The notes under the pieces were generated by a model that ran no database searches, was not told the origin of the DNA, and worked only from the letters and a program-made list of their open reading frames with translations. Below are positions 22,431-49,977 of a stretch of 64,000 nucleotides of DNA, piece after piece. Every line of letters starts with the position of its first letter. Positions within the stretch are counted from its first letter, which is position 1. The translations under genes and the position numbers were made by a program. The DNA is from Planctomycetota bacterium (GTDB taxonomy: Bacteria > Planctomycetota > UBA8742 > UBA2392): NCBI GenBank assembly GCA_015075515.1, contig JABTUE010000001.1, positions 1,013,001-1,077,000 on the forward strand, written 5' to 3'.

Positions 22431-22507
22431 GCACCCGTAGCTCAATTGGATAGAGCATCTGACTACGGATCAGAAGGTTGCACGTTCGACTCGTGCCGGG
22501 TGTACCA
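22431..22507 (+). tRNA. tRNA-Arg (anticodon ACG)
   Basis: 77 nt with a cloverleaf: acceptor GCACCCG/CGGGTGT, D-stem GCTC/GAGC, anticodon stem TCTGA/TCAGA with loop CTACGGA, T-stem GCACG/CGTGC with loop TTCGACT, 3' ACCA. A terminator hairpin follows at 22513-22547. Confidence 0.85.
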
Positions 22508-25700: not shown

Positions 25701-25980
25701 CAAGCTGCTTTTCGAGGGCTTTTTCGCCCTTGGGGCCGCCCAGCTTGACCGGCAACGTGCGGCCTTCAAAGGGCGGCTCGGCACCCAGCAGCAGCCGGAT
25801 GCCGGACAAACGCTCAAGCTCTTCCACCAGCAGCGAAAAGCCGCCCAGGTTGAAGTACCCCGTTGCCACGTCCAGCGACGGCGGCGTCTTGAGCTTGGCC
25901 ACGCTGCCCTGAATGGCGGCCTTGAGCGCCTCCTCCATCGTGCCGTTGTCGAGATTGTCCGCGATGTCCCGCAGCGTCAT
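22741..25980 (-). CDS. Phospholipase-D (HKD) nuclease domain fused to an SNF2-family helicase
   Basis: 1079 aa. The N-terminal HKD motif is FLHAKAFILSDGEGVFVGSSNFTYAGL. The SNF2 core has Walker A LIADSVGLGKS, DEAH box VVVDEAHGVRN, and helicase-C LVTTDVLAEGMNLQQ...QRHGRIDRIG. Confidence 0.85.
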   Translation of the reverse strand: MTLRDIADNLDNGTMEEALKAAIQGSVAKLKTPPSLDVATGYFNLGGFSLLVEELERLSGIRLLLGAEPPFEGRTLPVKLGGPKGEKALEKQLAAQLERQEEGLRLDRNLTEFDAQAEGVVKRLIDLQRGGNLRVRRFKFPPFLHAKAFILSDGEGVFVGSSNFTYAGLRKNLELNVSRKDTEPYNKARQWFDNLWERSEDFDLARLYEDRFAPVSPWLVYMRALYERYGEQLNEEHGGLSRIHLTNFQNDGVERARKILAQRGGVLIADSVGLGKSFIAAKLIEDARQSHQRVLLVAPAALRDGSWARFMARTDLRVEVRSFEEIAQGKRDVDASDYAMVVVDEAHGVRNPDADRSKALRKLLRGDPPKRLVMLTATPVNNSVWDLYYLLEFFIKQDAAFAEAGIRSMRDLFKQASRTDPDDLTPDLLFELLDRVVVRRTRHFVKKYYPHDRIRLPDGSEIQIEFPKPHVDKLGYRLDALLPGFFAEFERRVMPEEGEPELRLARYQPSAFRKDGDIEQSEVVLVGLVRSGMLKRFESSIEAFRKTVQRMIRHHETFLQLLGKGKVATTKALEAVLELPSADTDEAEEAMDELEREGDLENSSAYKVNDLREAVECDLAILRNFHKRVEKVTAEQDPKLKSLVKALEQIAAHADKDGTTPEAQRDNRKVLIFTYFADTMNWIFDFLENELATNARLKHFRGRVAKVSSAEGTEAVFGFAPESMDAPADKRDDRFDILVTTDVLAEGMNLQQCRNLINYDLPWNPMRLVQRHGRIDRIGSKHKDNYIYCFLPDDELDRLLRLHDRIQDKVKVAARTVGVEAEILPGTETGDVVLGVKDELERIKKGDASLLELGGEREAPESGEEFRQELRKALENPRHKTAILDFPWTAGSALATKGPSGFFFCARVGKEPLFRFVTADGTLVDDRVLTSLRRIRCPEDAPTTLTEALRQQAYEAWRIARQHILAKWNELTDPANLQPKIPPSMQRAADIVRSHAAPDWTPEYTASLVARLQAPHGHKIQRPIQEAIRSHEESPQEAAKRLAEVVEELGLQPYERPKPLDVLHEEHIHLVCWMALVGR

Positions 25981-29952: not shown

Positions 29953-32900
29953 TCATGCTGGGGACTTGAGGCGGCGGTAGTGGGCCAAAACGGGGGTGAG
30001 GCGCTGCTGGTAGGGCTGGCCTTCGATTTTGCCTTCGTGGAAGGTCTCGAAGATGTGGGTCAGGTGTTCTTCCGTCAGGCCGTAGAGCAGGGCGACGGCG
30101 GCGTCGAGCTCGTGGATGTGGCCCTGTCTGGTGCGGTCATCGAGGGTTCCGCAATCCACGCCGACGGCTTGGGCCCAGCCCTGGTAACGGTCATCCACGG
30201 CGGCCAGGCGGCCGGCCAGGGCCACGACACGCTGCCACAGGGGGTGCGTGCGTTCGGGACGCGGGATGGGGAGGGCGTTGAAAATGTGGAAGTTCATGTG
30301 GATTTCGACCCAGCGGCGGGCGAACCAATCCAAAGGGACGGAGCAGAGGACGCCCAGCAGGAAAGCCTGATCCTTCTCGTCACCACGGGGCCAAACCGCG
30401 TAAGGCGCTGCGTTGACAATAACCGCTTCCGGCGGGACCAGTGCGGCAATCACGGTGCGGTTATTCGTGCGGTTCGTGACATCGCGAAAGGCGATACGCG
30501 GGTGCAGGGCCGGAAGTGTCTTTTTGTCCTTCACCCACGCCGCGGGCATCTCACTGAAGGCCGAGGCGCTGTTACGGGCCGCGCGTGCGCGCTTGTCTTG
30601 CAGGTAAGCGTAAACCTTTTTCGGGTTCGCCCAGGCGTAGTAGCTGCTTTCGCCCCGGTCGGGCTGCCAGATGTCAAAACTGCCGCCGGTGAAGACGGGG
30701 ATATGCCCCTTGGGGCGCCTTTCGACAAACTTGCCGAGCGCCGGGCCTTTCTTGACTTCGTTGGTGGCGTCCATTTCACGTTGCGGCCGCGCGCGCCAGG
30801 CCTTCTTGTCGTCCAAGTCCAGGCGCGGCGCCTTGCGCAGTTGCAGAAAGGGCTCCAGCGAATCGTCGCTGGGCAACAGCGGAAACGCCGCTGTTTCCGT
30901 CCAGGTCAGAAACTCGGCGACGGGCACGGCGGGGGGCTCGCCGGCTGTGCCGGCGCGGAAGCGCTCCAGTGAGCTGTAAGGCCCGCGAAAGCGCACGACT
31001 GTGCCCGGCGCGCGCCGCAGGACGGAAAGTGCGACGGTGTACTGCGGATGCACGTCGGGAAAGAACCAGTTGCGATTGTTCAGCAGGAACGTCAGTTCTT
31101 CCACGGCGCCGTCGGCCAAGACGGCTTTGCGGAACTCCTCACTGCCGCCGCTGCACCAGACACTGCGCGGCACGACCACGCCAAGCCGGCCTTCAGGTCG
31201 GCATAACCGCCAGAATCGCCAACAAAAGCCTTTGTAAAGGTCGGGGTCGCCCGTGCCCATACCGGGGAACGCGCCGGAAGTGAGGATGACGCGCATGGCT
31301 TCGGCTGATTCCTGTTCGGCCTCGAAGCGCTTAACCAAGTCGGGGCGTTCTCCGCGGAGCTTCTCCGCCTGCTTCTTCTGTTGGGCCGCACTCAAACCGT
31401 TCATGCCCGGTTGATAGCGCACCCAGAACTTGAGTTCCTCGATGGTGGCTTCTTCCCACGGCGGGTTGCCGAGGATCACGTCAAAGCCGGGGTTGTCGCC
31501 GAAAAACACTTCGGGGAAGGCTGCCGGGAAGTGCAGGACATGCAGGCCCTCAAGGGCCTTCAGGGCCTGTTTGTGCAGCTTGCTGCCGGGGATGGCCGCG
31601 TCGCCCTTGCCCAGCAGCAGCGACAGCTCGCCGCCCTCGACGGCCTGTTGGCAGCCTTCGTCCAGGCGCGCGGCGGTCAGCACGTCAAAGATGGCCGTGG
31701 CCGGGGCCAGCTTTTGCTGGATTTGCTCATCAAGCCGTTTCGCCTGGGCGATGTCCTGCACGCTGCTGTCCGTAAGCGCCCGCAACTTCTCAAGGTCGCC
31801 GGCCACAAGCTTGAGGTACTTTTTGAGTTCACCGGTAAAGCCGAAACCGCCATCCTTGAGCAGCTCTTCGGCTTCCGCGACGCGCTCAATGCCCGCCAGG
31901 CTGTTGCCGTGGCGCAGGGTGCGGTCCAGAAACGAAAGGGGCAGGCCGGGCACGAAGGTGTGAATCCACAGGGCCAGGCGCGACAGCTCAACGGCGGTGC
32001 GGTTGTAATCGACGCCGTAGATGCAGCGGCGGGCGATCATGCGGCGCAGAAGCTGGCTGCCGTCCACGCGGCGCTGCACGCCGACCTGGGCCAGGCCGGC
32101 TTCGGCGGCTTTGCGCAGGCTTTCCAGCTCGGCCTTGACGGCGGGCAGGGGCCGTCGCTCAAGGTAGCGTGACATGCCGGCTTCGATGAAATCCACGGCG
32201 GAGACGAGAAAGTGGCCGCTGCCCATGGCGATGTCGGAGACGCGGAAGTCAAAGAAGCGTTTGCCGGCCTCGGCTTCGGGCAGTGTGTCGAGACGCTGGA
32301 AGTGTTCTTCGAGGGCGGGGTTGAGGGCCCCGCGCAGCAGGTGGGCGACGGCGAACTCGGGTGTGTAATAGCTGCCGCTGGCCTTGCGGGCGCCGGAAGC
32401 GTTGTGCAGGTAGAAGTCGCCCTTGGCGACAATGACGGCGTCGGTTTTCTTGCTTACGGGGCGATAACGGCCCTCGGCGTCGCTTGTTAAATCTTCTTCG
32501 GCCTGGCCGAGTTCCGAGAGCAGCAGGCCTTCGTAGATGGTGCCGAACTCGCGCACGCCAATGGCGCTGAAGTCAACGGGGCCGGGGATGCCGTCGCGGG
32601 TGTCATCCACGAGCAGGGTGGAGAGTGCGGCGCGAAAGACGCTGTCGGGCAGCTCGACGCTGTCGATGACTTGGCCTTCAGGGCGGGTCTTGTCGAACAA
32701 GCCGCCGTTGTAGGCGGGGACAGACAGCGCCTTGTCGCCTTCGCGGATGGCGTGAAAGACGCGCTGGACATCTTTCCAGGTGCCGGTGCCGGCGTCCTTG
32801 TGGTAGGTGGCGTTCTTGAGGCGTTCCTCGACCAGGTCCTGGGCGAGGCCCTTGATTGACTTCTTGCGGTAAGCCTGGCTTTCGAGGTAGGGCAGCAGGT

Positions 32901-34005
32901 CTTTGTCTTCGGCGTAGGCAACAAACAGCAGGCGGAACAGCAGCACCAGCGCGGCGTCGTAGGTCTCGCGCAACTGCCCGGCGTTCATGCGCTTGAGGCC
33001 GCGGGCAGCGGCCAGGCCTTGGGCGAGTCTGGGGATGACGGCGGTGTAAATGCGGTCGCGCAGCTTGACGCGGACATCGACGGCAAAGCGTGAGGATTCA
33101 TTGAGGATGTAATCCACCGTGCCGTCGGGGCGCAGGGCCTCGGCGCTGAACAGCAGCCACAGGAAGGGCTGGTGCTGTTCTTCGATCAGGGCCAGGTTGA
33201 TCTCGGCGAAGGTTTCCGTGCGGCCTTTGCTTGCGACCGGGCGTTCGCCATCGGTGGAGTACAGGCGCAGCTTGTCGCCCTGCATGGTGACGACCCAGGG
33301 GCAGCCGTTGTCCTGGGCCTTGTTCAGGGCGTAGGCGGCGGGGCTGAGGTCGGCAAAGCGGGTTGCCGGGCGGTCCGGCATTTCGTCTTCACGAACGAGT
33401 ACGGCGACGGCCTGCTTGCGGCCGCCGGTCTTGAGCAACAGGTAGTTTTGGTTGGTTTCCTCGATTTCAAAGCCGAGGCCTTGGAGCAACTGGCGCTCGC
33501 GCAGGTTGACGACGGCAGCGGCCCTTTGGCTGGCGGGTGTGTAGTGGGCGGTGCCGCTGACGCGCTCGTGCAGGTAGTGGCTGGAAAACATGCCCTCGTT
33601 GCGCAGGCCGGGGACAGCGGAGACCATCTGGGGCAGGGCTTCACGGACGAACTTGACGGCGGCTTCGTTGTTGGGCTGATTCAGGAATTCGCGGCAGACG
33701 GTTTGGGCGCGTTCCACGGGCAGATCGAAGTAGATGGGCGGGTGGCCTGTGTTGTGGGTGATGACGGGGCCGCACAGGGTGACGTAGCTGCCGTGCAAGA
33801 AGACGGCGAGCACGGGCACGGCGCGGCCTTTCTCGCGCTCCTTCCAGCATTCGCGCACGGCGGCCTGTGTGGGGCGGCGGTTGAACTGGAAGACGGCGAC
33901 CTCGGCGGCGGATTTGTCCGTGAGGAAGTACTCGACTGGTTTGCAGCCTTCCGGCAGCTTGCCCTGGGTGAGGGGGCGAGGTTCGAGATCGTCAAGGAAT
34001 GCCAT
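29953..34005 (-). CDS. Large (1350 aa) gamma-class N6-adenine DNA methyltransferase of the Eco57I / BREX-PglX / DISARM-DrmMI type with a C-terminal target-recognition region
   Basis: Motifs are GSYYTPEFAV (motif X-like), DIAMGSGHFLV (motif I, SAM), and VILGNPPWEE (motif IV, NPPW). The N-terminal roughly 450 aa are unassigned. A GGAG lies upstream of the ATG at 34005. Confidence 0.85.
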   Translation of the reverse strand: MAFLDDLEPRPLTQGKLPEGCKPVEYFLTDKSAAEVAVFQFNRRPTQAAVRECWKEREKGRAVPVLAVFLHGSYVTLCGPVITHNTGHPPIYFDLPVERAQTVCREFLNQPNNEAAVKFVREALPQMVSAVPGLRNEGMFSSHYLHERVSGTAHYTPASQRAAAVVNLRERQLLQGLGFEIEETNQNYLLLKTGGRKQAVAVLVREDEMPDRPATRFADLSPAAYALNKAQDNGCPWVVTMQGDKLRLYSTDGERPVASKGRTETFAEINLALIEEQHQPFLWLLFSAEALRPDGTVDYILNESSRFAVDVRVKLRDRIYTAVIPRLAQGLAAARGLKRMNAGQLRETYDAALVLLFRLLFVAYAEDKDLLPYLESQAYRKKSIKGLAQDLVEERLKNATYHKDAGTGTWKDVQRVFHAIREGDKALSVPAYNGGLFDKTRPEGQVIDSVELPDSVFRAALSTLLVDDTRDGIPGPVDFSAIGVREFGTIYEGLLLSELGQAEEDLTSDAEGRYRPVSKKTDAVIVAKGDFYLHNASGARKASGSYYTPEFAVAHLLRGALNPALEEHFQRLDTLPEAEAGKRFFDFRVSDIAMGSGHFLVSAVDFIEAGMSRYLERRPLPAVKAELESLRKAAEAGLAQVGVQRRVDGSQLLRRMIARRCIYGVDYNRTAVELSRLALWIHTFVPGLPLSFLDRTLRHGNSLAGIERVAEAEELLKDGGFGFTGELKKYLKLVAGDLEKLRALTDSSVQDIAQAKRLDEQIQQKLAPATAIFDVLTAARLDEGCQQAVEGGELSLLLGKGDAAIPGSKLHKQALKALEGLHVLHFPAAFPEVFFGDNPGFDVILGNPPWEEATIEELKFWVRYQPGMNGLSAAQQKKQAEKLRGERPDLVKRFEAEQESAEAMRVILTSGAFPGMGTGDPDLYKGFCWRFWRLCRPEGRLGVVVPRSVWCSGGSEEFRKAVLADGAVEELTFLLNNRNWFFPDVHPQYTVALSVLRRAPGTVVRFRGPYSSLERFRAGTAGEPPAVPVAEFLTWTETAAFPLLPSDDSLEPFLQLRKAPRLDLDDKKAWRARPQREMDATNEVKKGPALGKFVERRPKGHIPVFTGGSFDIWQPDRGESSYYAWANPKKVYAYLQDKRARAARNSASAFSEMPAAWVKDKKTLPALHPRIAFRDVTNRTNNRTVIAALVPPEAVIVNAAPYAVWPRGDEKDQAFLLGVLCSVPLDWFARRWVEIHMNFHIFNALPIPRPERTHPLWQRVVALAGRLAAVDDRYQGWAQAVGVDCGTLDDRTRQGHIHELDAAVALLYGLTEEHLTHIFETFHEGKIEGQPYQQRLTPVLAHYRRLKSPA

Positions 34006-36429: not shown

Positions 36430-36785
36430 GGCGTCCCCTTTCGTGGCCGCAAGTAGCCCAGCGCGCGCAGGTGCTCCAGTCGCGTCCTGCCCGCACTGAA
36501 GGCGTCCAAGTCCAGCGCGTCGCCGTGCCAGCAGCCCTTGCCGGGCAGGCCCACGGGCTTGCCGTCGGCCCCGGTTGCCGCAGCGTGATTGGCCGAAAAG
36601 CAGGCCCAGCGCGTTGGCTTGCCTGGAATGCGCCCGAAACAGCCGCGATGGCCGCACACGGGGCACTGCCCGCCGGCTCGCCCGAAGTCGCGCGCGTGGT
36701 CGCGGTTGTAGGACTCGACGGCGGCGCGAATGTTCGTGGTGTCGTTCAAGCCGGGAATCGGGCCGCGATAGATCGGGAAACTCAT
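36426..36785 (-). CDS. Small zinc-finger protein (island)
   Basis: 119 aa with CPVCGHRGCFGRIPG...WACF. The stop is coupled to the downstream gene. Confidence 0.45.
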   Translation of the reverse strand: MSFPIYRGPIPGLNDTTNIRAAVESYNRDHARDFGRAGGQCPVCGHRGCFGRIPGKPTRWACFSANHAAATGADGKPVGLPGKGCWHGDALDLDAFSAGRTRLEHLRALGYLRPRKGTP

Positions 36786-39640
36786 GCCGTCCCCCTGTAT
36801 GCGCCGGAAAGTGGGGCGGTCGGGGCAGGTGGGGCGGATGGGCCTTGCAAGCGGGTTTCAGGCCGTCTGTCCTGCCCCGCCCTGCCTGCCTGTTGGGGCA
36901 GGTCGTGGGGCGCGCCTTTGTTCCCTGCCCCACTGTCGCCCCAGTCCTGCCCCAGTGATTCATGCATAGTGGGGCAGCGGGAATCCCCTTCATTTAGGCT
37001 TTCGTCGCCATCCTGCCCCACTTGCCCCACTTCCTCACCAAGTAAGAACGACGGCGACAGGCACAACACGCGCGGCCGGCTTCCCGCGATGGAAACCTTG
37101 ACGGTCAGGTGTTTGCCGTCCGTGCGGATCAGCAGGCCCTTTTCACGCAACTGTCGGCGCAGGGTGCTTTCGGAAACGGCCAGCGGCTCGCCCGTGCGGT
37201 TGCACATGCCCTGCACGGCGGCAAACGCGGCTTGCGGCTCCAGGTACAGGATTTCCCCGTCTGTCCAGCCGGCCCGCGCGCCCTTGGCCCGCCAGTGGCC
37301 TTCAATGCGGTCGCCGACGACTTCTTGGCCGCCCAGGTATTCCCAGCCCCACGCCGACGCGCGGGGCGGATTGTCGTTGTTCATGCCGGCGACGTGGGCC
37401 GCGCCGGAGTGGATTGCCGCTTGCAGCAACTCGCGGAAGCGGTCCACGGGATCGGCGCTGGCCAGATGCTCGCCTTGCAGTCGGGCGACTTCCAGCAGCG
37501 CGGCGCGGGCCTTGGCCAGCAACTCGCGCGTCCCGGCGGTGTCAAGCACGCCGCAGTGCTGGCCGAACTCCGCGAACACTTCCAGGGCGGCGTACAAGCC
37601 GGCAACGTGGTCCGGCGTTTGTCCGTGCGTGAACCCGCCCATGCCGCGCCAGGCCGTAGGCGCGCGCAAGATGCGGTCTTGGGCGGCGGTCAGGTTGTTG
37701 CCCGTCGCCAACCAGCGAATGAAGCCGGCCAAAGCGGCGGCGTACAGGCCCGCGTCGCCGTCGTGCTGGCAGCGGGTCAGGGCGGCCAGATTCACGTCGC
37801 CGTCGCCGGCTCCTTCACGCGACGCGGCTTGCAGGTTCAACACCAGCAGGCGCGCGCGGAGGCTCTGGCCGCGCGGCACATCTTCGCCCGTGACCAGCAG
37901 GGTCCCGCGCGGCGGCTTGGCGTCAATCGGCGTGCCATCCTGCCGACAGCGGCCGCGCCCTTGCCCGTTGTTCTGGCCGCGTAAGACTTGATCGGCGCGC
38001 CGGTGATAGGCCGCCACGTCGAATTGGGTGCCGCCGGGCGCGAAGTCGTCAATCACAAGCAGGGCGTCCTTGGCGTGAAAACAAAGCGCGCGCAGGGCGT
38101 TGGGTGTGTGCTCCCAGCTTGCGGGCAGGTTGCCACGGTTCATGGCCGGCCCGAAGAAGCGTTGCACCAGCGCGGCCAGTTCGCTCTTGCGCGTGCCGGT
38201 GCGGCCGTTGAGAAACACCGTCGCGTCGCACTTGCCCAGCACCGCGCGCCACGGCAGGGCGAACAGCGGCAACGCCACGCGGCCAGGCGCGACTTCCAGC
38301 AGGCGCAGGGACGCGGCCACGGCATCGCGCAGGGCGTCGCCTTGGGGCGGATCAGGCAGGCGGTACAGCGCAAGTCCCTGCGGGTCCGTCTCAATGTCGT
38401 CGCGCGCGCCGTCTGCCCCAATGCCGCCGGCGGTGTGCAGGTAAACCCGCTGGCCCGCGACTTGCCGCCAGCCGGTGTGCGTGAACACGACGCGCGTTGG
38501 CGTTTCGCCGGACGTGAGTTGCAGGGCTGCTTGCACGTGCGCCTCCGCGTTGAAACCGGGGAACACCACGGCGTTTGTGCCCAGGTGTTCCACGGCCCAT
38601 TTGCGGACGTTGGCGAGTTGGGCGGCGGGAATCGTGAACGGCGCGGTCCTTCGGCCGGCGTGTTCGGCCTGCACCTCAAGTGTCCGCGCGGGCTGGCCCG
38701 ATCCGTCGTCGCGCGTTACTTGCGCGACAATGCGCGCGGTCCAGTTGGTCAACGTAAGCGGCACGTGGCCGTCGCGTGTCGGCTTCAGCCAGACGAACCC
38801 GCCGGGCGTGACTTGGTAGGCGCAGTCTGCCGGAGCGTCCGTGGCCGCCGGTTCGGTGACGGGAACATCTGGCGCGGCCGCCAGCAGGTCCGCCACGGCG
38901 CAGGGCGTGTCGCGCCACACAAGCACACTCTCGCGGCGCGGGTTGGCTTCGCCGGCGACGGCGCAGTTGGGGGCACGGAACACGCGCGCCAGGTCGTGCG
39001 TCACATCGGCCTTGAAGCCGGCCCGTCGGGCCTCTGCCAGCGGCTCACCCAAGGCCGCCAGGGCGTCAACGCACAGGCGCGCCAACCCTTCGCAGGCGCG
39101 GCGGTACTCGTTGGCGTCGGTCACTGGCGCAAGCAGCGGCGCAATCACGCGCGCCCCGCGCGGCGTCAGGTGGCCCAGCGCGCCGGGCAGCTTGCCGTCG
39201 AGCATGGCCAGAGTCAGAGCGTCGGCGCGGTCGTGCGGCAGGGCGGCGTGTTTGCCGGCGCTGTCGTGCCAGTCCAGGTCGCAGACGGCGCAGGATGCCG
39301 AAAGCCAGTGGTCGCCCTTGCGCCGGTTGTCGCGCCAGCGGTGCGGCGCGAACCAGCTTTCCTTGTCCGGGTCCAGTTCGGACAAGCCGTCAGCAAGGGC
39401 GGCAGGCGTCCATTCGGACAGCGTATGAAAGCCCTTGGCGCTGCGAACCTTCAGGCCGGCACCGAATGAAAAGCCGGTGTCGGGTCCGGCGCTTGTCGCG
39501 CCAGGTGGTGCAATTTCCCCTGAACTCGCGTCACGTCCGATTCCACTTTCGGGGGTCTGGGGGCCGTCGCCGGGTTCGTCGGTTTGTGTCGGGCTGGCGT
39601 TGCCGCGCCGGCCCGACGTGTTTTCGGTCGGTGCGAGCAT
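36782..39640 (-). CDS. Large P-loop protein, putative phage/plasmid primase-helicase (DUF927-like) replication protein
   Basis: 952 aa. A Walker-A-like motif VFLNGRTGTRKSELA and Walker-B-like LLVIDDFAPGG sit in the C-terminal half. Its position between the excisionase-like gene and small phage-like genes suggests a replication role. Confidence 0.55.
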   Translation of the reverse strand: MLAPTENTSGRRGNASPTQTDEPGDGPQTPESGIGRDASSGEIAPPGATSAGPDTGFSFGAGLKVRSAKGFHTLSEWTPAALADGLSELDPDKESWFAPHRWRDNRRKGDHWLSASCAVCDLDWHDSAGKHAALPHDRADALTLAMLDGKLPGALGHLTPRGARVIAPLLAPVTDANEYRRACEGLARLCVDALAALGEPLAEARRAGFKADVTHDLARVFRAPNCAVAGEANPRRESVLVWRDTPCAVADLLAAAPDVPVTEPAATDAPADCAYQVTPGGFVWLKPTRDGHVPLTLTNWTARIVAQVTRDDGSGQPARTLEVQAEHAGRRTAPFTIPAAQLANVRKWAVEHLGTNAVVFPGFNAEAHVQAALQLTSGETPTRVVFTHTGWRQVAGQRVYLHTAGGIGADGARDDIETDPQGLALYRLPDPPQGDALRDAVAASLRLLEVAPGRVALPLFALPWRAVLGKCDATVFLNGRTGTRKSELAALVQRFFGPAMNRGNLPASWEHTPNALRALCFHAKDALLVIDDFAPGGTQFDVAAYHRRADQVLRGQNNGQGRGRCRQDGTPIDAKPPRGTLLVTGEDVPRGQSLRARLLVLNLQAASREGAGDGDVNLAALTRCQHDGDAGLYAAALAGFIRWLATGNNLTAAQDRILRAPTAWRGMGGFTHGQTPDHVAGLYAALEVFAEFGQHCGVLDTAGTRELLAKARAALLEVARLQGEHLASADPVDRFRELLQAAIHSGAAHVAGMNNDNPPRASAWGWEYLGGQEVVGDRIEGHWRAKGARAGWTDGEILYLEPQAAFAAVQGMCNRTGEPLAVSESTLRRQLREKGLLIRTDGKHLTVKVSIAGSRPRVLCLSPSFLLGEEVGQVGQDGDESLNEGDSRCPTMHESLGQDWGDSGAGNKGAPHDLPQQAGRAGQDRRPETRLQGPSAPPAPTAPLSGAYRGTA

Positions 39641-41012: not shown

Positions 41013-42383
41013 TCAGGCGCGGTTCAGCTTCAACAGGCGGCCCGCGCGGCCGGTACGCGCTGAAATCCAGCCTTCCAGGGCGGGCTTGATTCCCAACAGT
41101 TCCTCCACAGTCGCGGCGCTGGCCTGCTTGCGCGGCAGCGCGAAGTGGCCGGCGTAGTGCTTGACCAGAACCGCGTAGTCGTGGCCCAGTTCGCCGGCCA
41201 CGACGTACAGGTTCAGCCCAAGGCCGGAGTTGGCAAGGTACGTCGCGCAGGTTGAGCGGAAGTCCTTGGGCTTCCACTTGAAGTCCGTCGCCCCTTGGAC
41301 GGCCTTGATGGCGGCCTTCAGGCTGCGCCCCACAACGGTTTCCGCGTCGTCGTCGTCATCGTCGTCGGGCAAGACGTGGCGCTTGTCGCCAATCGCCAGG
41401 GGCAGCGCCCCGCCGAAGACGTAAGGCTCGGCCTTGGGGTCGGCCGCGCCCGCCATCGTTTGCAGCATCTTGCGCAGCGCAGGCCGGGAGGTCAGCGGCA
41501 CGACCCGTTGCCGGCGCGTCTTGGCACCGTAGATCAGCAGCCGGTCGCCGTCGAAATCAACCCACGACTCCGGCGCGTCGGGCGCGGACGGCTTCCAGCG
41601 CAGGCGTTCGGCTTCACCGCGACGGCAGCCCGTGACCATCAGAAATGCCAGCAAGGGGAACAACTCGCTGTCAGGGCGCTCTTCGTCGTGCGTCGCGGCT
41701 GCTTCCAGTATCCCCCGCAGGTTGGCGGAAGTCAGGGTAACGGGTTTGACTTCCACGCGACCCACGGACAGTCCCTCGTTGATGGCTTCGGCGTCCAAGC
41801 GCACGCATGACAGCCGCCTGCGCCCGAAGTTCAGCATGGCCTTGAAGTGGCGGGCGATGCCAGCGACGGAATGGGGCGACAGCGCCGCGCCGGTGCGGCT
41901 GTTGGGTTGGTTTCGCACATGCTCAACAAATCCCTCCAGGTCGCCGACGGTCAAGTCGTGTGGCCGGGCCGGCCGGCCGCGCCAGGACTCAAGAAACGGC
42001 CAGCACTGGCGGTAGCCGATCAAGGTCTTGGGCGAGCGGTCCTTGGCGGTCAGGTGCTTGGCGTGTTGCTCTAGCAGTTGCAGCCATGTCGCGTCACGGT
42101 CAACAGGCTTGGCGCCGTCGGCCAGTTGCTGCCGTTCTTTGGCCAGTTCGCGCGACTTGGCGACGGCGAACGGCCGGGCCGCTTCCCGCGACGAAAGAGG
42201 CAGGCCGTCGTGGCCGGCAAGAACCAGTTTGCGGCGTGCTCCCACCCTGCCTTGTGGCGCCGGATCACGCCAGCGCAGCGCGACAACAGTCTGTCCGCCG
42301 CGCCTCTCGGTTGAAATGGTGACGCCGGGGTGCTCGCTTCGCGACCTTTTGCTGTAGCCCTTGCGTGTGCGTTTGCGTGCCAT
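41013..42383 (-). CDS. Tyrosine-type site-specific integrase
   Basis: ATG at 42383; the longer ORF to 42662 would run into the att repeat and is rejected. The C-terminal catalytic region is RSTCATYL...LGHDYAVLVKHYAGH. It has an N-terminal core-binding/SAM-like domain and lies adjacent to attR. Confidence 0.85.
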   Translation of the reverse strand: MARKRTRKGYSKRSRSEHPGVTISTERRGGQTVVALRWRDPAPQGRVGARRKLVLAGHDGLPLSSREAARPFAVAKSRELAKERQQLADGAKPVDRDATWLQLLEQHAKHLTAKDRSPKTLIGYRQCWPFLESWRGRPARPHDLTVGDLEGFVEHVRNQPNSRTGAALSPHSVAGIARHFKAMLNFGRRRLSCVRLDAEAINEGLSVGRVEVKPVTLTSANLRGILEAAATHDEERPDSELFPLLAFLMVTGCRRGEAERLRWKPSAPDAPESWVDFDGDRLLIYGAKTRRQRVVPLTSRPALRKMLQTMAGAADPKAEPYVFGGALPLAIGDKRHVLPDDDDDDDAETVVGRSLKAAIKAVQGATDFKWKPKDFRSTCATYLANSGLGLNLYVVAGELGHDYAVLVKHYAGHFALPRKQASAATVEELLGIKPALEGWISARTGRAGRLLKLNRA

Positions 42384-42439: not shown

Positions 42440-42546
42440 ATTTGGCCCTATCCGGCACCGGATGGCCATTACAAAACAGGCCCAAATCCGCATAGGGAGC
42501 AACTTTGCGCAACTTGGCACTTTTCGGCACTAAATCCGTGGACCTA

Positions 42547-42641
42547 CTACGGATCAGAAGGTTGCACGTTCGACTCGTGCCGGGTGTACCAGCCACAAAG
42601 CCGCCTTGGGAGCCAATCCCAAGGCGGCTGACGTTTCCGGC
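42547..42641. repeat. attR-like direct repeat (partial tRNA-Arg 3' half plus downstream hairpin); an imperfect extension continues to about 42720
   Basis: It matches 22463-22557 with a few mismatches. There is no tRNA 5' half upstream. Confidence 0.75.
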
Positions 42642-42734: not shown

Positions 42735-45545
42735 CTAGCCGTGCGGGTGGCGCACGGCCTCGAGTTCGGCCTCGGCGGGGGCGGCCTTGCCGCCCCGAAC
42801 CGGGATCAGGTTGACCGCGCACACCTTGTATTCGGCGGTGCCGGCCAGCGGGTCGCCCACGTCAACCGTGAGTTTATTGATCGCAGCCTCGGTGAAGTGC
42901 AGCGGCATCCAGACGTTGCCCTTCTGCACGCGGCCGGAAACCCAGACTTTGGCGTACACCCCGCCGCGGCGCGAGACAACCTTGACCTTGTCGCCGTCGG
43001 CCACGCCCAGTTTTGCCGCGTCTTCTTCATGCACTTCAACAAAGCACTCGCCCACCTTGGCCATGGTCCCGCTGTCGCGGCGGGTCTGGGTGCCGGCGTT
43101 GTAGTGGTACAGCACGCGGCCGGTGGCCAGGTTGTACGGGTATTCTTCGTCGGGCAGCTCCACGGGCGGGCGATAGTTGGTGACAATAAACGTGCCCTTG
43201 CCCTTCACCGGCCCGCCCTTGTGCATGTACTGGGTGCCTTCGTGGTCGGGGCCGGTGCAGGGCCACTGGATGCCCATCGGCGTGGCATCCAGGCGTTCGT
43301 GGCTGATGCCCGCGTAGCGCGGGGCCAGGCTGGCAATTTCGGCGTACACCTCGCCGGCGTTGCGATAGTGCGGCATGGCGTATCCCGCCGCGCGGGCAAA
43401 GTCGCACAGGATCTGCCAGTCCGGCCGCGCGTTGCCGGGCGGGTTGACGGCCCTGCGCACGCGCTGGACACGACGGTCGGTGTTGGTGAACACGCCGTCT
43501 TTTTCGGCAAAGCTGGCGCCGGGGAAGACCACATGGGCGTACTTTGTGGTCTCGTTCATGAAGATGTCCTGGTGAATCAGGAACTCCAGCGCCTTCACGC
43601 CGTGTTCCAGGTGGTTGGTGTTGGGCTCGGAAATCAGGATGTCCTCGCCCATGACGTACAGCGCCCTGACGCTGCCGTCTTCAACCCCCTTCATGATCTC
43701 GTTCAGGTTCTTGCCCACGCCGGCCGGCAGGTCGGTCTGCCAGGCGGCCTCAAATTTGGCGCGGTTGGCCGGGTCGCCCGCGGGCTGAAAGCCCGTGTAA
43801 TACAGCGGTGTGGCGCCCGCATCCGTCGCGCCCTGCACGTTGTTCTGGCCGCGCAATGAGTTCAGGCCGCCAAAGGGCACGCCCAGGTGCCCGGTCATCA
43901 TCACCAGGTTGGCCAGGCTGAAAATGTTGTCCGTGCCGTGGGCGTGTTCGGTGATGCCCAGCGTGTAGTAGATCGCGGCCTTACGCGTGGTGGCGTATTC
44001 AATGGCCGCGGCCTTGATCAGCTCGGCAGGCACGCCGGTGACGCGCTCGGCTTCGGGCAGCTTGAACTTGGCCAGGTTGGCGCGCAGTTCGGGCCAGCCT
44101 TCGGTGTGTTTTTCGATGAAGTCTTTGTCCACCAGGCCTGCGTCAATGATCGCCTGGGCCATGGCGTTGATCAGCCACACATCGGTGCCGGGCCTGAGCT
44201 GCAGGTGCATGTCGGCGTAGTCGCACAGCCAGATTTTGCGCGGGTCGGCAATCACCATGCGGGCGCCGCGCTGGCGCGCGACCTTCATTTCCATGGCGAT
44301 GATGGGGTGGGCTTCGGTGGTGTTGCTGCCGATGATGAACAGAAAGTCCAGGTCCCGGATTTCCGGGATGCTGTTGGACATCACGCCTGCGCCAAAGCTC
44401 TTCACGAGAGCCTGTTCCGTCGGGAAATGTCACGTGGCGGCACAGGAGTGAATGTTGCCGGTCTTGAAGGCCGCGCGGGCGACCTTGCCCATCAGGAAGT
44501 TTTCTTCGCCGGTGCAGCGCGCCGATGAAATGAAGCCCAGGGCCCCGGGCCCGTGGCGCTGCTTGACGCGGTTCATGCCCTCGGCGGCGAACTTGAGGGC
44601 TTCGTCCCAGCTTACGGCGTGCAGCCTGCCGTCGGCCTTGCGGATCATCGGCTCGGTGATGCGGTCCTTGTGGTGGATGAAGTCGTAGGCAAAGCGGCCC
44701 TTGATGCACAGGTTGCCGTCGTTGACGGTTTCGCCGGGCGGGGGGCTGGTGACGCGCACGACTTTTTCGACGCCGTCCACCCTGGCAACGTTCAAATCCA
44801 TCTGGCAGCCGACGCCGCAGTAGTTGCAGGTGGTGCGCACCTTGCGCTCGATGTGGTGGGGCAGAAACTCGATTGCCTTTTTCTCGACCAGCGCGCCCGT
44901 CGGGCAGGTGTCAATGCAGCCGCCGCAGAGTTCACAGGTGGTGTCCAGCAGCCCGCGCATGCCCGCGGTGCCGATGGTGGTTTCGCTGCCGCGGCCGGTG
45001 AGTGTAATGGCGTTCACGGCCTCGATTTCGTCGCAGTAGCGCGTGCAGCGGGCGCAGAGAACGCATAGTTCGGGGTTGAACTGGATGTACGGGTTTTTGT
45101 CGCCGGGGCGCGCGGCACGCGGCGCCTCGACGGGTTCCAGCGCCACGGGCCTGCATTGCGTGGCCCAGGCGCGCAGGTCGTTGCCGTTGCAGGTTTCCAC
45201 CGGCAGGCCGGAATCATCCAGCTTGTGGTCGGCCATGTACAGGCTGACCAGCAGGTCCTGGTGTTTCTGCACGCGCGGGCTGGTGACCTGGGTCTTGACC
45301 ACCTGGTTGGGCACGGCGTTCCAGGCGCACGAGGGCTGCAACCGGCGCTGGCCTTCAACCTCGACCAGACAGGCGCGGCAGGCGCCGGCGGGGTCCAGAC
45401 GCTTGTCGTCGCACAGGGTGGGGATGGAGATGCCCGCGCGCTGGCAGGCGCGCAGGACGGTTTCGCCGGGCTGTGCAGCCACGGGTTTGCCGTCAACAGT
45501 GATGGTGAAACCGTCGGTCATGGTACCCGCGGGCAAGTGTACCAT
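42735..45545 (-). CDS. fdhA: Formate dehydrogenase alpha subunit (molybdopterin oxidoreductase with N-terminal 2Fe-2S/4Fe-4S domains), selenocysteine-containing; the in-frame TGA at 44430-44432 is read as Sec
   Basis: Two same-frame ORFs (44430..45545 and 42735..44405) are separated only by TGA. Around the TGA the sequence NIHSCAAT-U-HFPTEQALVKSFGAGVMSNS aligns with E. coli FdhF NVDCCARV-U-HGPSVAGLHQSVGNGAMSNA. A hairpin GCUCUCGUGAAGAGC lies 18 nt downstream of the UGA. The N-terminal start could also be 45521. Confidence 0.8.
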
Positions 45546-45581: not shown

Positions 45582-47093
45582 CTATCGCTTGGTGAACTCT
45601 TGCGGCCAGTACTTCATGGCGCTTTCCAGCGGCTTGGCCGCGACCATGCCCAGGCCGCAGATGCTGCCTTCTTCCATTTCCCAGCCGATGTCTGCGGCGT
45701 GTTTGAGCGCGCCGGGGTCGCCGGTCTTGAGGTACTTTGTGGTCTGGCGGTGCAGATAGCGCGAGCCAATGCGGCAGGGCGCGCACTGGCCGCAGGATTC
45801 GACCTCAAAGAACTCCAGTTGCCATTGCGCGGCCTTGGCCATGTCCACCGTGTCGTTCAACACGACCACGCCCGCGCTGCCCAGCATCGAGCCCTCTTTG
45901 GCCAGGCTCTTAAAATCCAGCGGCGTGTTGCTTTTGCTGATCGGCAGAAAGCCGGAACTCGCGCCGCCGGGGCTGAAGGCCTTGGGTTTGCCGTCGTAGC
46001 CGCCGGCCACGGCCACCAGTTCATCCAGCGTCGCGCCCAATGGCAGTTCGTACACGCCGGGTTTGTTCACGTGGCCGCTGATGCAATACAGCTTGCTGCC
46101 GGCCTCGGCGCGGCCCAGTGCCCTGAACGCCGCGCCGCCGTGGCGGAAGATCCACGGCACGCAGGCCAGCGTTTCCACGTTATTGATCAGCGTGGGCTTG
46201 CCGCGAAAGCCGTACTCGTGCGGAAACGGCGGCTTCAGCCGCGGCATGCCGCGTTTGCCCTCCATGCTTTCCAGCAGTGCCGTTTCTTCGCCGCAGATGT
46301 AGGCCCCGTGGCCCTGGTGAAAGTACCAGCTCACGAAGTTCACGTCGGCTTCGGCGCGCTTGAGCGCGGCCTTCACGCTTTCGTACTCGGCCCGGAACTC
46401 GCCCCGGATATAGAAGTGGCACTCCTGCGCGCCCACGGCGTGGGCCGCGATCGCCATGCCCTCAATGATCGCGTCAGGCCGGCGCAGCATCGTTTCGCGG
46501 TCCTTGAACGTTGCGGGTTCGGCCTCGTCGGCGTTGCACACCACGTAGCGTTCGGTTTCTTTCTGCGAGGCCACACCCTTCCACTTGATATGGGCCGGAA
46601 AGCCCGCGCCGCCGCGGCCCTGCAACCCGGATTCCTCCAGCAGCTTGAAGATGTCGGCCGGCGCCATGGCGCGGGCTTTCTTGAGCGCGGCAAAGCTGAA
46701 ATCCGGCCTGCCGCCCAGGTTCACGGCCAGGCCGGGGTTGTCGGGCGTAATGCCGCGCGGTCCGCGGGCCTTGTCAAAGACGTTGAGGGATTCATCCAGC
46801 GCCGCGGGCGCGCGGTCACACTGGCCCAGACAGCTTACCTCTTCAACCTGTTTGCCCGACTGGCGCAGCTCGGCCGCAAGTTCGTCACTGCCGCGCACGC
46901 GACAGCTCAGGCCGTTGCACACGCGCACGCGCGGGCCGCCCTTGAGCAGCGTATAGAACGTGCCCGCGCCCCAGACTTCGGCTTCGCTGACAAGCGTTCG
47001 GCGGGCGACCTCGCGCACGTTGTCTTCCGTGACGCCGCCCAATTCCTCAAGCAGGTGGAGAACCGCTTCGCGTCTGGCGCCGGTCTTTTGCAT
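45582..47093 (-). CDS. NAD-dependent formate dehydrogenase beta subunit fused to a gamma-like (NuoE-type 2Fe-2S) N-terminal domain (NuoE/NuoF homolog)
   Basis: The N-terminal thioredoxin-like 2Fe-2S block is VCNGLSCRVRG...CLGQCDRAP. The NuoF core has GRGGAGFP, the FMN site CNADEAEPATFKDR, and the 4Fe-4S site ESCGQCAPCRIG. Confidence 0.85.
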   Translation of the reverse strand: MQKTGARREAVLHLLEELGGVTEDNVREVARRTLVSEAEVWGAGTFYTLLKGGPRVRVCNGLSCRVRGSDELAAELRQSGKQVEEVSCLGQCDRAPAALDESLNVFDKARGPRGITPDNPGLAVNLGGRPDFSFAALKKARAMAPADIFKLLEESGLQGRGGAGFPAHIKWKGVASQKETERYVVCNADEAEPATFKDRETMLRRPDAIIEGMAIAAHAVGAQECHFYIRGEFRAEYESVKAALKRAEADVNFVSWYFHQGHGAYICGEETALLESMEGKRGMPRLKPPFPHEYGFRGKPTLINNVETLACVPWIFRHGGAAFRALGRAEAGSKLYCISGHVNKPGVYELPLGATLDELVAVAGGYDGKPKAFSPGGASSGFLPISKSNTPLDFKSLAKEGSMLGSAGVVVLNDTVDMAKAAQWQLEFFEVESCGQCAPCRIGSRYLHRQTTKYLKTGDPGALKHAADIGWEMEEGSICGLGMVAAKPLESAMKYWPQEFTKR

Positions 47094-47143: not shown

Positions 47144-47722
47144 TCACGGCTTGGCCGACCACAGGCCCTTTTTTTCGGCCCTGGCTCTGGCTTCGGCCTT
47201 CTGCATGCGGTCGCGCAGGCCGGGGTCGGCAATTTCGGCAATGTTGCGGATCTTGACCAGACCCTCGCCGAGCATGGCCTGGTTCACGCACAGATAACCG
47301 CCGGGGATGATGCGGCCGGGCTTGCCGTCGGCCAGCCGTTCGTAGGCCTGCACATAGACAATGCCGTAGATGACGTACTGGCGCACGTCGCTGTCCAGCG
47401 CGGGCTTGATGAAGATCTGTTCCTCGCCGGCCAGATAGTTGGCCATCCATTCCTGGGTCATGGCAAAGGTGTTGGGCGCCTGGCGCTGGGGCAGGCCTTC
47501 AACGCCCAACAGGCGGATTTCGCGCTCGGTGGGCGAGTTGCCGTTGACAATGATGGTGTGGGGAGCCTTCAGCAGCGTGGGCCGCATGATCAGGCGCCCG
47601 GCGTCGTCGGTGACGATTTCGTCGGATTTGCCGCGCCGCACGGGATTGCCGGCGTCGTCCACTTCCTGGGTAACGCATCCGGCCAGCACCAGGCACAGCC
47701 CGAAAATCGCCCAACGGCCCAT
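47144..47722 (-). CDS. Thermonuclease (SNase-like) family lipoprotein
   Basis: Lipobox MGRWAIFGLCLVLAGC. The C-terminal ARARAEKKGLWS matches the SNase-family end motif. Confidence 0.6.
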   Translation of the reverse strand: MGRWAIFGLCLVLAGCVTQEVDDAGNPVRRGKSDEIVTDDAGRLIMRPTLLKAPHTIIVNGNSPTEREIRLLGVEGLPQRQAPNTFAMTQEWMANYLAGEEQIFIKPALDSDVRQYVIYGIVYVQAYERLADGKPGRIIPGGYLCVNQAMLGEGLVKIRNIAEIADPGLRDRMQKAEARARAEKKGLWSAKP

Positions 47723-47826
47723 TGCTTTCTCCTGCCCATGAAACGCGCCAGGACGGTGCGAGTTGGCACAACCGCGCGACGCGGCTACACTTAAGCCTGC
47801 CCCGGTACACGCCCCAAACCCGACAT

Positions 47827-49977
47827 ATGGCCACGGAAAACCTGGCGTTCAAGCTGGTCGGTCAGACCATCGGCGGTTGCCAGATCAAGAAACTGATCGG
47901 CACCGGCGGCATGGGCGCGGTGTATCTGGCGCACCAGTTGTCGCTGGGCAAGGAAGTTGCGCTCAAGGTTCTTGACGAAAAATGGTCGCGCCACGCCCGG
48001 CACGTCGAGGGCTTTCTGCGCGAGGCGCGCCTGGCCGCCAAGCTCGAAGACGAACACATCGTGCAGATCTACGACGTGGGCACCGACGGCCGGCATCACT
48101 TCATTGTGATGCAGCTTGCCCGCGGCGAAAACCTGAAAGACCGCCTGCGGCGCGGCGCGCTGGAGGTGGAAGAAGCCCTGAAATACATCGAGGGCATCGC
48201 CCGCGGGCTGGCGCTGGCCCACCGCCACAACATCGTGCACCGCGACATCAAGCCCGGCAACCTGGTGATCGGCGAAGACGGCATCGTCAAGATTCTGGAC
48301 TTCGGACTGGCCAAACTCGAAGAGGCCGAAAGCGACAAGAGCCAGGGCCAGTTCATGGGCAGCATCGCCTACATGTCGCCCGAACAGAGCGAATACATGC
48401 CGATTGACGCCCGCACCGACATCTATTCGCTGGGCATTACGGCATGGCAGTGTCTGGCCGGACAGATGCCCTTTCGCGGCGAAAACAACTTTGACCTGAT
48501 TGTGAAGCACCACACCGAGGAACCCCTCGCCCCCAGCGTGATCCGGCGCGAGGTGCCGCTGACGCTGTCGCGCGTGGTGCTGCGCATGCTGGGCAAAAAC
48601 CCGGCCGACCGCTACGCCACCGTGGACGACCTGCTGCTGGACCTCAAGCTGATACGCCGCCACCAGTTGCCCGCCGCGCCCAGCCCCTGGGGCAAACGCC
48701 CGCTGAACCCCGAGCCCGTGGACCTGTCCGGCCACAGCAGCGAACAGCTTTACAAGAACGCGCTGGAAATGCAGCGCGAACTGTTCGGCGCCGGCAAACA
48801 GGTCGTGCCGATGCGCGAGCTGCTGCCCAAAATGGGCCTCAAGCCCCGCGCCGGCGCCGACGCGCCGCTTACCCCCGCGACCTTTCTGGAACTGCGCTGC
48901 GGCGATAAACGCATGCCCCTGGCCGGCGCCGCGCGCTACGGCTTTGCGCCCCCCGAATGCGAAGACCGCCTGTACTACGGCGAGCGCTTCCGCATCGGCG
49001 AACTCGACGGCCGCGTGATCGTGCGCGTGCGCGGGCCCAAACCCCTGGGCATCGTGGACGTGCAGCGCCTGTTTGACCTGCTTGAGGCCCTGCCCGCCAC
49101 GTTCAAACAACTGGCCGTGGCCCTTGACCCCGATTATTCAGCCCAGGGCAGCGACATCCGCTGGGTCGTGGATACCTACAACCTGCTGGACAAACGCGGC
49201 TGCCAGTTCACGCTGATCGTCGGCAGCATGGAAAACCACACCACCTTCGTGAACCTGGGCATTGACAGCCACATCAGGCTCGAACTTGAACTCGAACGCA
49301 CCCAGACCGTCAGCCTGGAACGCCTCACACCGCAACAGACACCCCTGCCCGCCGCGCCCGAACTGCCCGCGCCCCTGACGCCCAGCGCCAACGCCCTGGT
49401 CGCCCAGATCGAATCCCTGCTGCAAAGCGGCAACCTGGTCGAGGCCGCCCGCAACTGGCGCCGCCTGGTCAGCGAAGGCCTCGAACGCCGCCAGTTGGCC
49501 AACCTCGATGACCTGCGCAAACGCCTGTACGACCGCCTGCTGGACGACGGCCGCGAAGCAATGGAGGCCGACGACCACGACACCGCAACCGAACGCTTCA
49601 ATACATTGATTGACCTTGACCCCGGCCGCCACGAGGGCCACTTCTACAAGGGCCTGCTGCTCAAAAGCGAAGGCAAGCTCGAGTACGCCCAGGCATTTTT
49701 GACCCAGGCAATTCTGGCTGCGCCCGACGAAGCCGAACTGTTCTACCACCGGGCGATTGTGCGCTCGCGCGTGGACGACCTCGAGGGCGCCCTGCGCGAC
49801 CTCGACATGGCCCTGCAACACAACCCCAGACTGGTGGCGGCCTATTACAACCGCGCCAAGGTTCACCACCAGATGGGCCGTGACGACCTGGCCAAGCGCG
49901 ACATGCTGATGTACCAGCGGCTCAAGGGCGGCACGGCCAAAAGCAGCCGCGCCGGCGCAACCCCCGAGGCCGAATAA
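47827..49977 (+). CDS. Ser/Thr protein kinase with C-terminal TPR repeats
   Basis: ATG at 47827; the longer ORF from 47722 is rejected. Hanks motifs are GTGGMGAVYLA, VALK, HRDIKPGNLVI, DFGLAK, YMSPEQ. The C-terminal TPR region is YHRAIVRSRVDDLEGALRDLDMALQHNPRLVAAYYNRAKVHHQ. Confidence 0.85.
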   Translation: MATENLAFKLVGQTIGGCQIKKLIGTGGMGAVYLAHQLSLGKEVALKVLDEKWSRHARHVEGFLREARLAAKLEDEHIVQIYDVGTDGRHHFIVMQLARGENLKDRLRRGALEVEEALKYIEGIARGLALAHRHNIVHRDIKPGNLVIGEDGIVKILDFGLAKLEEAESDKSQGQFMGSIAYMSPEQSEYMPIDARTDIYSLGITAWQCLAGQMPFRGENNFDLIVKHHTEEPLAPSVIRREVPLTLSRVVLRMLGKNPADRYATVDDLLLDLKLIRRHQLPAAPSPWGKRPLNPEPVDLSGHSSEQLYKNALEMQRELFGAGKQVVPMRELLPKMGLKPRAGADAPLTPATFLELRCGDKRMPLAGAARYGFAPPECEDRLYYGERFRIGELDGRVIVRVRGPKPLGIVDVQRLFDLLEALPATFKQLAVALDPDYSAQGSDIRWVVDTYNLLDKRGCQFTLIVGSMENHTTFVNLGIDSHIRLELELERTQTVSLERLTPQQTPLPAAPELPAPLTPSANALVAQIESLLQSGNLVEAARNWRRLVSEGLERRQLANLDDLRKRLYDRLLDDGREAMEADDHDTATERFNTLIDLDPGRHEGHFYKGLLLKSEGKLEYAQAFLTQAILAAPDEAELFYHRAIVRSRVDDLEGALRDLDMALQHNPRLVAAYYNRAKVHHQMGRDDLAKRDMLMYQRLKGGTAKSSRAGATPEAE

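Follow-up and report, generated by a model that had tools for sequence, protein, structure and literature searches.

A gene for the catalytic subunit of a formate dehydrogenase (FDH) lies on the minus strand at positions 42735-45545 of a 64-kb stretch of DNA from a planctomycete metagenome-assembled genome (MAG; contig JABTUE010000001.1), hereafter the window, meaning the whole 64,000 nucleotides analyzed. Public gene calls divide this gene in two at an in-frame TGA. The evidence assembled here indicates that the two pieces are very probably one gene, fdhA, encoding a ∼936-aa catalytic (alpha) subunit of a cytoplasmic, nicotinamide adenine dinucleotide (NAD)-linked, molybdenum- or tungsten-dependent (Mo/W) FDH, organized as a two-gene operon with a NuoE/NuoF-like subunit, in which the UGA at codon 372 (44430-44432) would be read as selenocysteine (Sec) at the Mo/W ligand position.

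The fdhA reading frame, its catalytic site, and conservation of the UGA

The TGA at 44430-44432 is the sole interruption between minus-strand open reading frames (ORFs) 44433-45545 (371 codons) and 42738-44429 (564 codons). Both are in the same frame, and they appear in the ORF list as 44430..45545(-) and 42735..44405(-). Translation confirms what a preliminary description of this DNA had reported, namely two minus-strand ORFs in the same frame parted by that TGA alone. The minus-strand DNA at the site reads TGT GCC GCC ACG TGA CAT TTC CCG ACG GAA CAG GCT CTC GTG AAG AGC TTT GGC, and the peptide flanking the in-frame stop in the translation of 42735-45545(-) is NIHSCAAT*HFPTEQALVKSFGAGVMSN. 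The joined gene comprises 371 + 1 + 564 = 936 codons and ends with a TAG stop at 42735-42737. The ∼936-aa product anticipated earlier holds when codons are counted from 45545, with the caveat that an alternative start at ATG 45521 would give 928 aa, and the start may lie there because most relatives align from residue 9 onward only.

Alignment to solved structures with HMMER places the UGA opposite X (Sec140) of Escherichia coli FDH-H (1aa6, CARVXHGPSVAGLHQSVGNGAMSN), in agreement with the earlier matching of the UGA region to the Sec140 region of E. coli FdhF. In the same alignments the UGA falls opposite X of the F420-dependent FDH 9t1s_L and opposite Cys386 of Rhodobacter capsulatus FdsA (6tg9, CARVCHSPTGYGL). 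The histidine directly after the UGA is conserved, corresponding to H141 in 1aa6 and H387 in 6tg9 and present also in 9t1s_L, and the arginine motif LRGQNNVQG is intact in the window FdhA and identical in 7qv7, 6tg9, 9t1s, and 7bkb.

The domain content of the joined protein is that of an FDH alpha subunit. The 936-aa FdhA scores 755.5 bits against NCBIfam TIGR01591 (Fdh-alpha equivalog) over residues 238-912, above the curated equivalog cut-off of 666.25 bits. Its 371-aa N-terminal part (44433-45545) combines NuoG-like domains for 2Fe-2S and 4Fe-4S clusters with the beginning of the molybdopterin domain, with the Pfam families Fer2_4, Fer4_Nqo3, and Molybdop_Fe4S4 forming a NuoG-like N-terminal extension within residues 13-292, followed by positions 1-75 of the Molybdopterin profile. 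The C-terminal part (42735-44429) contains the remaining molybdopterin domain, matching positions 96-352 of the same profile, and the dinucleotide-binding domain Molydop_binding; the TGA thus cuts through a single domain. Among solved structures, FdhA best matches the alpha subunits of NAD-dependent FDHs 9wxb_B and 6tg9_A, over nearly the full length and with E ∼1e-210.

Conservation of the TGA was followed in DNA of relatives drawn from one genome per species, from metagenomes, and from exact-protein look-ups. The window clade so defined comprises 16 sequences including the window, the other 15 having 82-90% protein identity to it; the metagenome scan contributed two of its members and four exact-protein look-ups contributed four more. 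The preliminary description had considered the possibility of a strain-specific TGA with cysteine (Cys) in close relatives, and what was found is TGA at the homologous codon in 15/15 other clade members and in five independent assemblies of the identical sequence, described below. Beyond the clade, the codon is TGA in 16/16 Planctomycetota genome loci covering the site (61-90% identity) and in 36 of the 40 FdhA-type genome loci, in addition to 12 metagenome loci. The TGA-bearing FdhA-type loci include members of Desulfocapsaceae/Desulfobulbales, Latescibacterota, Calditrichia, Nitrospirae, Sulfurimonas, and Blautia. The remaining four of the 40 (L022, L023, L036, and L039) have TGC or TGT, Cys is also found at the UGA position in L073, P0002, P0003, P0018, and P0023, and distant non-FDH molybdoenzymes have TGC or TGT at the homologous codon.

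All public gene calls found for the window clade split fdhA, giving pieces of 355-374 aa and 544-556 aa. The N-terminal part is a separate 371-aa gene in the calls for L001-L004, and the C-terminal part is publicly annotated as a "molybdopterin-dependent oxidoreductase" of 548-556 aa that starts at GTG 44405 or ATG 44381. Protein-database matches at 66-100% identity are all ∼550-aa fragments beginning directly after the stop (P0001-P0024), and the nearest full-length homologs in the protein database, at 52-59% identity, have Cys at the UGA position.

The hairpin downstream of the UGA and the decoding machinery

In bacteria, Sec insertion depends on a selenocysteine insertion sequence (SECIS), and a SECIS-like hairpin, AGGCUCU-CGUGA-AGAGCUU, with a 7-bp stem and a 5-nt loop, lies at 44395-44413 on the minus strand. 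With the U of the UGA numbered nt 1 of the RNA, the strands A20-G-G-C-U-C-U26 and A32-G-A-G-C-U-U38 pair around the loop C27-G-U-G-A31. The core consists of five Watson-Crick pairs at 44397-44411, the first of them at RNA nt 22, with 18 nt between the UGA and the stem, and the stem extends to 7 bp by an A-U and a G.U pair. Folding bears out in every particular the element first proposed here, GCUCU-CGUGA-AGAGC, with a perfect 5-bp stem, extendable to 7 bp, 18 nt past the UGA. The loop has G-U at positions 2-3 and starts 23 nt after the UGA. The published consensus for bacterial SECIS (bSECIS) elements specifies a loop of 3-9 nt, an upper stem of 4-16 bp, a UGA-to-loop distance of 16-37 nt, a minimum free energy of -7.5 kcal/mol or lower, and a G within the first two nucleotides of the loop, commonly with G or U as the next base (PMC13188914). 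When these criteria are applied by hand, the hairpin has bSECIS geometry: its loop is 5 nt long with G-U at positions 2-3, its stem has 7 bp, and the spacing is 23 nt.

The clade consensus A(A/G)GCUCU-NGUNA-AGAGCUU is found in 16/16 sequences. All seven pairs form in each of the 16, the single change being at pair 21-37 of the window, where G.U replaces A-U, and control positions slid along the alignment pair in 25-53% of cells as compared with 100% for the hairpin. Over codons +1 to +16, three third positions are invariant, those of GCT (Ala+7), AAG (Lys+10), and AGC (Ser+11), all within the 5-bp core, while the other 13 vary. GCT makes up 5.8% of conserved Ala codons in fdhA. Of the 60 alignment columns with conserved Ala, 4 keep a single codon throughout, and at Ala+7 alone that codon is GCT. 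By chance, such a hairpin, defined as at least 7 bp with at most one G.U, a loop of 3-9 nt, a G within the first two loop nucleotides, and spacing of 16-37 nt, occurs after 1.7% of in-frame fdhA codons and at ∼4% of window positions. The hairpin did not stand out in a sliding-window analysis of synonymous diversity, because the two loop codons vary and the stretch from +16 to +26 is even less variable; the site-by-site comparison is the more telling one.

The loop also shows a pattern of its own. It is CGUGA in 12/16 clade sequences and GGUCA in 4/16, and loop positions 1 and 4 (nt 27 and 30; window 44403-44406) co-vary, with C..G in 12 sequences, G..C in 4, and never a mixture; the same two positions are G..C in canonical relatives. 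This co-variation suggests constraint, possibly from a cross-loop pair flanking the exposed G-U. The four GGUCA sequences are not grouped in a rough neighbor-joining tree (645 nt, weak), and this scatter hints at repeated coupled loop changes.

Several results weigh against Sec decoding by means of this element. The hairpin is thermodynamically unexceptional for GC-rich sequence, with a z-score of -0.71 for the 66-nt fold, and its support therefore rests on conservation and geometry. The apical hairpin alone has a folding energy of -7.3 kcal/mol and just misses the -7.5 of the bSECIS model; in a 60-nt context the energy is -19.6, the bSECIS value being reached with flanking pairs only. No compensatory double changes occur in the window-clade stem, and the support is therefore invariance at synonymous sites and not covariation. 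Rfam searches of the whole window at gathering thresholds, and of 44300-44500 at E <= 10, returned no SECIS or relevant family and noise only. The G-U of the window loop is at nt 28-29, versus nt 23-24 in the hairpins of relatives. Finally, genes for selA, selB, selD, and tRNA-Sec are absent both from the 64-kb window and from the DNA within 10 kb of fdhA in planctomycete relatives, and the decoding machinery is therefore assumed.

The searches for this machinery covered several kinds of evidence. ARAGORN found no tRNA-Sec in the window and 18 loci, and Pfam searches of ∼40 window ORFs were likewise negative for SelA, SelB, and SelD domains. A tblastn search with E. coli SelA, SelB, and SelD gave a match within 1.46 Mb of retrieved DNA in the Blautia locus L043 only, where selB-selD-selA adjoin fdhA; detection of these genes serves as a positive control and shows that the queries work. 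Separation of fdhA from the sel genes has precedent in the phylum, as the Sec-insertion genes of planctomycete P1 are located away from fdhA, and P2, Gemmata obscuriglobus, and Isosphaera pallida are likewise reported to have full Sec-gene sets (PMC4807772). An fdhA gene apart from the sel genes is, on this literature, normal for Planctomycetota. The window genome presumably carries selA/B/C/D. In the proposed mechanism, SelB carrying Sec-tRNA(Sec) would bind the in-gene mRNA hairpin downstream of the UGA (nt 20-38, loop NGUNA), as judged by analogy with other bacteria, and would deliver Sec, as it does there, once the UGA reaches the ribosomal A site. Codon 372 would thereby be decoded as Sec and selenium incorporated into the window FdhA, where the residue would serve as a ligand of the metal of the bis-pyranopterin guanine dinucleotide (bis-PGD) cofactor.

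The SECIS-like hairpins of more distant relatives differ from that of the window in position and sequence. Planctomycetota at <=74% identity, Latescibacterota, Calditrichia, and deltaproteobacterial loci have the peptide HAPTVAGL after Sec, and the hairpin of these loci is GUGGCC-GGUCU-GGCCAC, whose loop spans nt 22-26 and has its G-U at nt 23-24. Compensatory changes occur between the hairpins of these relatives, giving, for example, GUAGCC/GGCUAC in L069 and GUCGCC/GGUGAC in L017. The SECIS of E. coli fdhF has a GGUC loop with G23/U24, a geometry shared by the relatives' hairpins. In the window clade, Sec is followed by HFPTEQAL, the GUGGCC-type hairpin is lost, and the clade's own loop is at nt 27-31, 5 nt farther downstream. 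With G-U at nt 28-29 of a CGUGA loop, the window hairpin departs from the fdhF-type SECIS (GGUC loop with G-U at nt 23-24), and it is not of that type because the clade has lost the GUGGCC-type hairpin and carries its loop 5 nt downstream. From these comparisons, the window hairpin is predicted to work like a bSECIS and differs from the fdhF-type element.

The window clade may well have lost an ancestral fdhF-like SECIS and replaced it with a hairpin 5 nt downstream made from different codons, a replacement coupled to a change of the active-site peptide, elsewhere highly conserved, from HAPTVAGL to HFPTEQAL, with the G-U alone kept in the loop and its flanks switching between C..G and G..C, possibly more than once. 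SECIS turnover within coding sequence would be the simplest reading of the hairpin shift. Two further observations concern SECIS-like hairpins in other loci. In L048 (4573-4632), from a planctomycete at 69% identity with TGA at the site, the hairpin is GGCC-GGACU-GGCC, with a loop that lacks the G-U found in all other Sec-type loci. In the deltaproteobacterial MAGs L022 (11048-11107) and L039 (11048-11107), the Cys-type (TGC) FdhA genes retain a SECIS-like hairpin, GUUGCC-GG(G/U)CU-GGC(A/U)AC, after the Cys codon, which looks like a remnant of Sec-to-Cys conversion, of a kind described previously (PMC1794560).

Translation through the UGA and alternative readings

Among the alternatives to Sec, the one that survives best, itself very improbable, is that the UGA is read as another amino acid, such as Trp, Cys, or Gly, by a near-cognate or suppressor tRNA or under a reassigned code. 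UGA is reassigned in some uncultured bacteria, and an alternative of this kind gains from the Sec machinery of this genome being only assumed. TGA is not reassigned in the window, because it ends 18 of the 32 confidently placed window genes, as the main stop codon there, and a scan of the 64 kb found no other convincing gene with an in-frame TGA. Reading as another amino acid would also leave the UGA standing at the catalytic Sec/Cys position and followed by a conserved hairpin of SECIS geometry.

A still less probable alternative is a split enzyme, in which translation ends at the UGA and restarts at GTG 44405 or ATG 44381 to produce two polypeptides that have no Sec/Cys ligand. These codons lie 9 and 17 codons past the TGA, respectively, and gene callers use both, yet the pattern of variation among the 16 clade sequences speaks for uninterrupted translation. 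In the 57 nt after the TGA, 14/14 variable columns are third codon positions and 19 residues are identical, and over codons +1 to +16 the protein is 100% identical with variation at third positions alone, as expected of sequence translated in frame. The GTG used by gene callers is GTC in four clade sequences (L007, L008, L009, and L062), and therefore no start codon is conserved before Met+17. Because codons +1 to +16 are coding-constrained in frame and lack a conserved start before Met+17, this pattern implies that ribosomes must read through the UGA. Neither piece of an enzyme split here would retain the metal ligand or the catalytic His beside it, and the alignments of solved homologs contain no known FDH that is split at the UGA position.

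The possibility that fdhA is a pseudogene, with the TGA a nonsense mutation in a formerly Cys-containing gene and the downstream ORF decaying, is remote and in effect refuted by conservation. It would account for the division of fdhA by public gene callers, for a GenBank name of the C-terminal part that is merely "molybdopterin-dependent oxidoreductase", and for the lack of sel genes nearby, but a decaying gene is not what the comparisons show. The TGA is common to 16 clade sequences that differ synonymously at ∼25% of codons, and to other phyla, and the stop coincides precisely with the catalytic Sec/Cys codon. Downstream of the TGA, 564 codons are open in every relative, with no frameshifts or stops, under purifying selection equal to that on the upstream part. 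In a 10-species codon alignment, differences from the window after the TGA amount, for example, to 155 synonymous and 67 nonsynonymous of 563 codons, and those before it to 75 synonymous and 32 nonsynonymous of 359, the same pattern on both sides.

A false stop made by sequencing or assembly error, conceivable for a MAG, is refuted by the same TGA with identical flanks in five independent assemblies of different runs and by the TGA in 15 related sequences, and has next to no probability. The exact C-terminal protein occurs on five independently assembled contigs, one from the GenBank MAG GCA_048499555.1 and four from Logan assemblies of different runs, with the same TGA split in 5/5. On the strength of these comparisons, the UGA is neither a sequencing error nor a nonsense mutation.

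The NuoEF-like partner, genomic surroundings, and significance

The next gene upstream (45582-47093, minus strand), separated from fdhA by 36 nt and in the same orientation, encodes a 503-aa fusion of a NuoE-like subunit (2Fe-2S thioredoxin-like) and a NuoF-like subunit with sites for flavin mononucleotide (FMN)/NADH and a 4Fe-4S cluster, a diaphorase partner resembling FdsGB and Fdh1B. The protein matches Pfam families PF01257 (2Fe-2S_thioredx), PF01512 (Complex1_51K), PF10531 (SLBB), and PF10589 (NADH_4Fe-4S), together with NCBIfam nuoF_fam and, in part, FDH gamma models. Among solved structures it best matches the tungsten FDH1 beta subunit of Methylobacterium extorquens (M. extorquens; 7e5z_B, residues 12-500), and 6tg9_B is among the top five. 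Pfam, NCBIfam, and these solved homologs (7e5z_B and 6tg9_B) all support the fused FdsGB-like gene that had been recognized upstream at the outset. Judged by sequence, the window enzyme is most like the two-subunit NAD-linked FDHs, because its NuoE/NuoF fusion best matches FDH1 beta 7e5z_B. Its electron acceptor would most likely be NAD+, an electron-bifurcating or other partner also being conceivable, and its cofactor metal is predicted to be Mo or W. No FdsD, FdsC, or FdhD gene adjoins the operon, and a scan for an operon promoter and terminator gave results at chance level.

The closest published precedent is planctomycete P1 from Porphyra umbilicalis, whose Sec-containing fdhA shares an operon with the nuoEF genes (Kim et al. 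2016; PMC4807772). Both P1 and the window belong to the same phylum and have a selenoprotein FdhA gene beside NuoE/NuoF-like genes, with no Sec-insertion genes adjoining fdhA. They differ, as far as the published description of P1 allows comparison, in that NuoE and NuoF of the window are fused in one 503-aa protein, and the lineages are different, the window and its relatives being uncultured MAGs, several with wastewater- or sludge-style isolate names.

Among enzymes of known structure, the NAD+-dependent Mo FDHs R. capsulatus FdsGBAD (6tg9/6tga) and 9wxb provide the best solved alpha homologs (residues 13-922) and share with the window enzyme the NuoG-like N-terminal Fe-S domains, the active-site His, LRGQNNVQG, and a NuoF-like FMN subunit. 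The R. capsulatus enzyme differs in having Cys386 where the window has Sec, in having separate FdsG and FdsB, and in having FdsD. The tungsten FDH1 of M. extorquens AM1 (Fdh1A/Fdh1B; 7e5z, 7vw6) has the same two-subunit alpha-beta organization with a NuoE-NuoF fusion as its beta subunit, whereas its alpha subunit is more distant from the window FdhA (E 1e-169). It is a Cys-type enzyme. E. coli FDH-H (FdhF; 1aa6/1fdo) resembles the window FdhA in the homologous Sec followed by His and in a coding-region hairpin that directly follows the UGA and exposes G-U in a small loop; unlike the window FdhA, it has no NuoG-like extension, and it serves formate-hydrogen lyase and has no NuoEF module.

Two relatives within the clade have a small toxin-antitoxin-like pair next to fdhA, on its upstream side. 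In L088 (1290-1858), a PIN toxin-antitoxin-like pair lies between the NuoEF-like gene and fdhA, and the two-gene operon is therefore interrupted in at least one lineage. A PemK toxin-antitoxin-like pair lies directly upstream of fdhA in L087 (277-914), on a contig that ends before any NuoEF-like gene.

In the window, the operon is flanked by an SNase-like gene upstream and an integrase downstream. The SNase-like gene (47144-47722, minus strand, 192 aa) has the same orientation as the NuoEF-like gene and lies 50 nt upstream of it, a position kept in L001 and L002. Eukaryote-like Ser/Thr protein kinase genes are found at 20964-22259 (minus strand) and 47722-49977 (plus strand), one fused to an N-terminal response-regulator receiver domain and the other to C-terminal TPR repeats; the gene at 47722-49977 is divergent from the SNase-fdsGB-fdhA gene string.

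Directly downstream of fdhA is an integrated island of ∼20 kb (22431-42637) with a GC content of 64.0%, compared with ∼67.7% in its flanks. A tRNA-Arg(ACG) gene is present at 22431-22507 (plus strand), and the 3′ half of this tRNA with a terminator-like hairpin forms a direct repeat, in which 22462-22553 matches 42546-42637, including 50 nt exactly. A tyrosine integrase gene (41013-42383, minus strand) adjoins the partial tRNA copy, and the independent assembly L001 has the same fdhA-integrase junction. The cargo looks defense-related and includes an SNF2+PLD helicase (22741-25980, minus strand), an S8 subtilase (27255-29900, plus strand), an Eco57I-like N6-methylase (29953-34005, minus strand), and a 952-aa protein (36782-39640, minus strand).

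Among bacterial selenoproteins FdhA is the most widespread, occurring in 67 of 75 Sec-using organisms (PMC1794560), and an fdhA-nuoEF arrangement has already been described in a planctomycete (PMC4807772). The Sec-fdhA assignment thus appears correct but ordinary, and knowledge of Sec decoding itself is unchanged by it. Its main value is in annotation, as it corrects a systematic mis-split of fdhA across the clade; since the gene calls are split clade-wide, metabolic reconstructions of these MAGs would miss a complete NAD-linked FDH and the selenium requirement that it implies. The assignment also adds one more clade to the list of Sec-using Planctomycetota. The mildly interesting feature is a small, clean comparative case of a SECIS hairpin that has apparently moved inside coding sequence. 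Given the known diversity of bacterial SECIS elements (PMC13188914), the turnover is a modest point. If true, it would be a naturally occurring example of SECIS replacement linked to a change in protein sequence, and the SelB of this lineage would tolerate, or have adapted to, a different UGA-to-loop distance.

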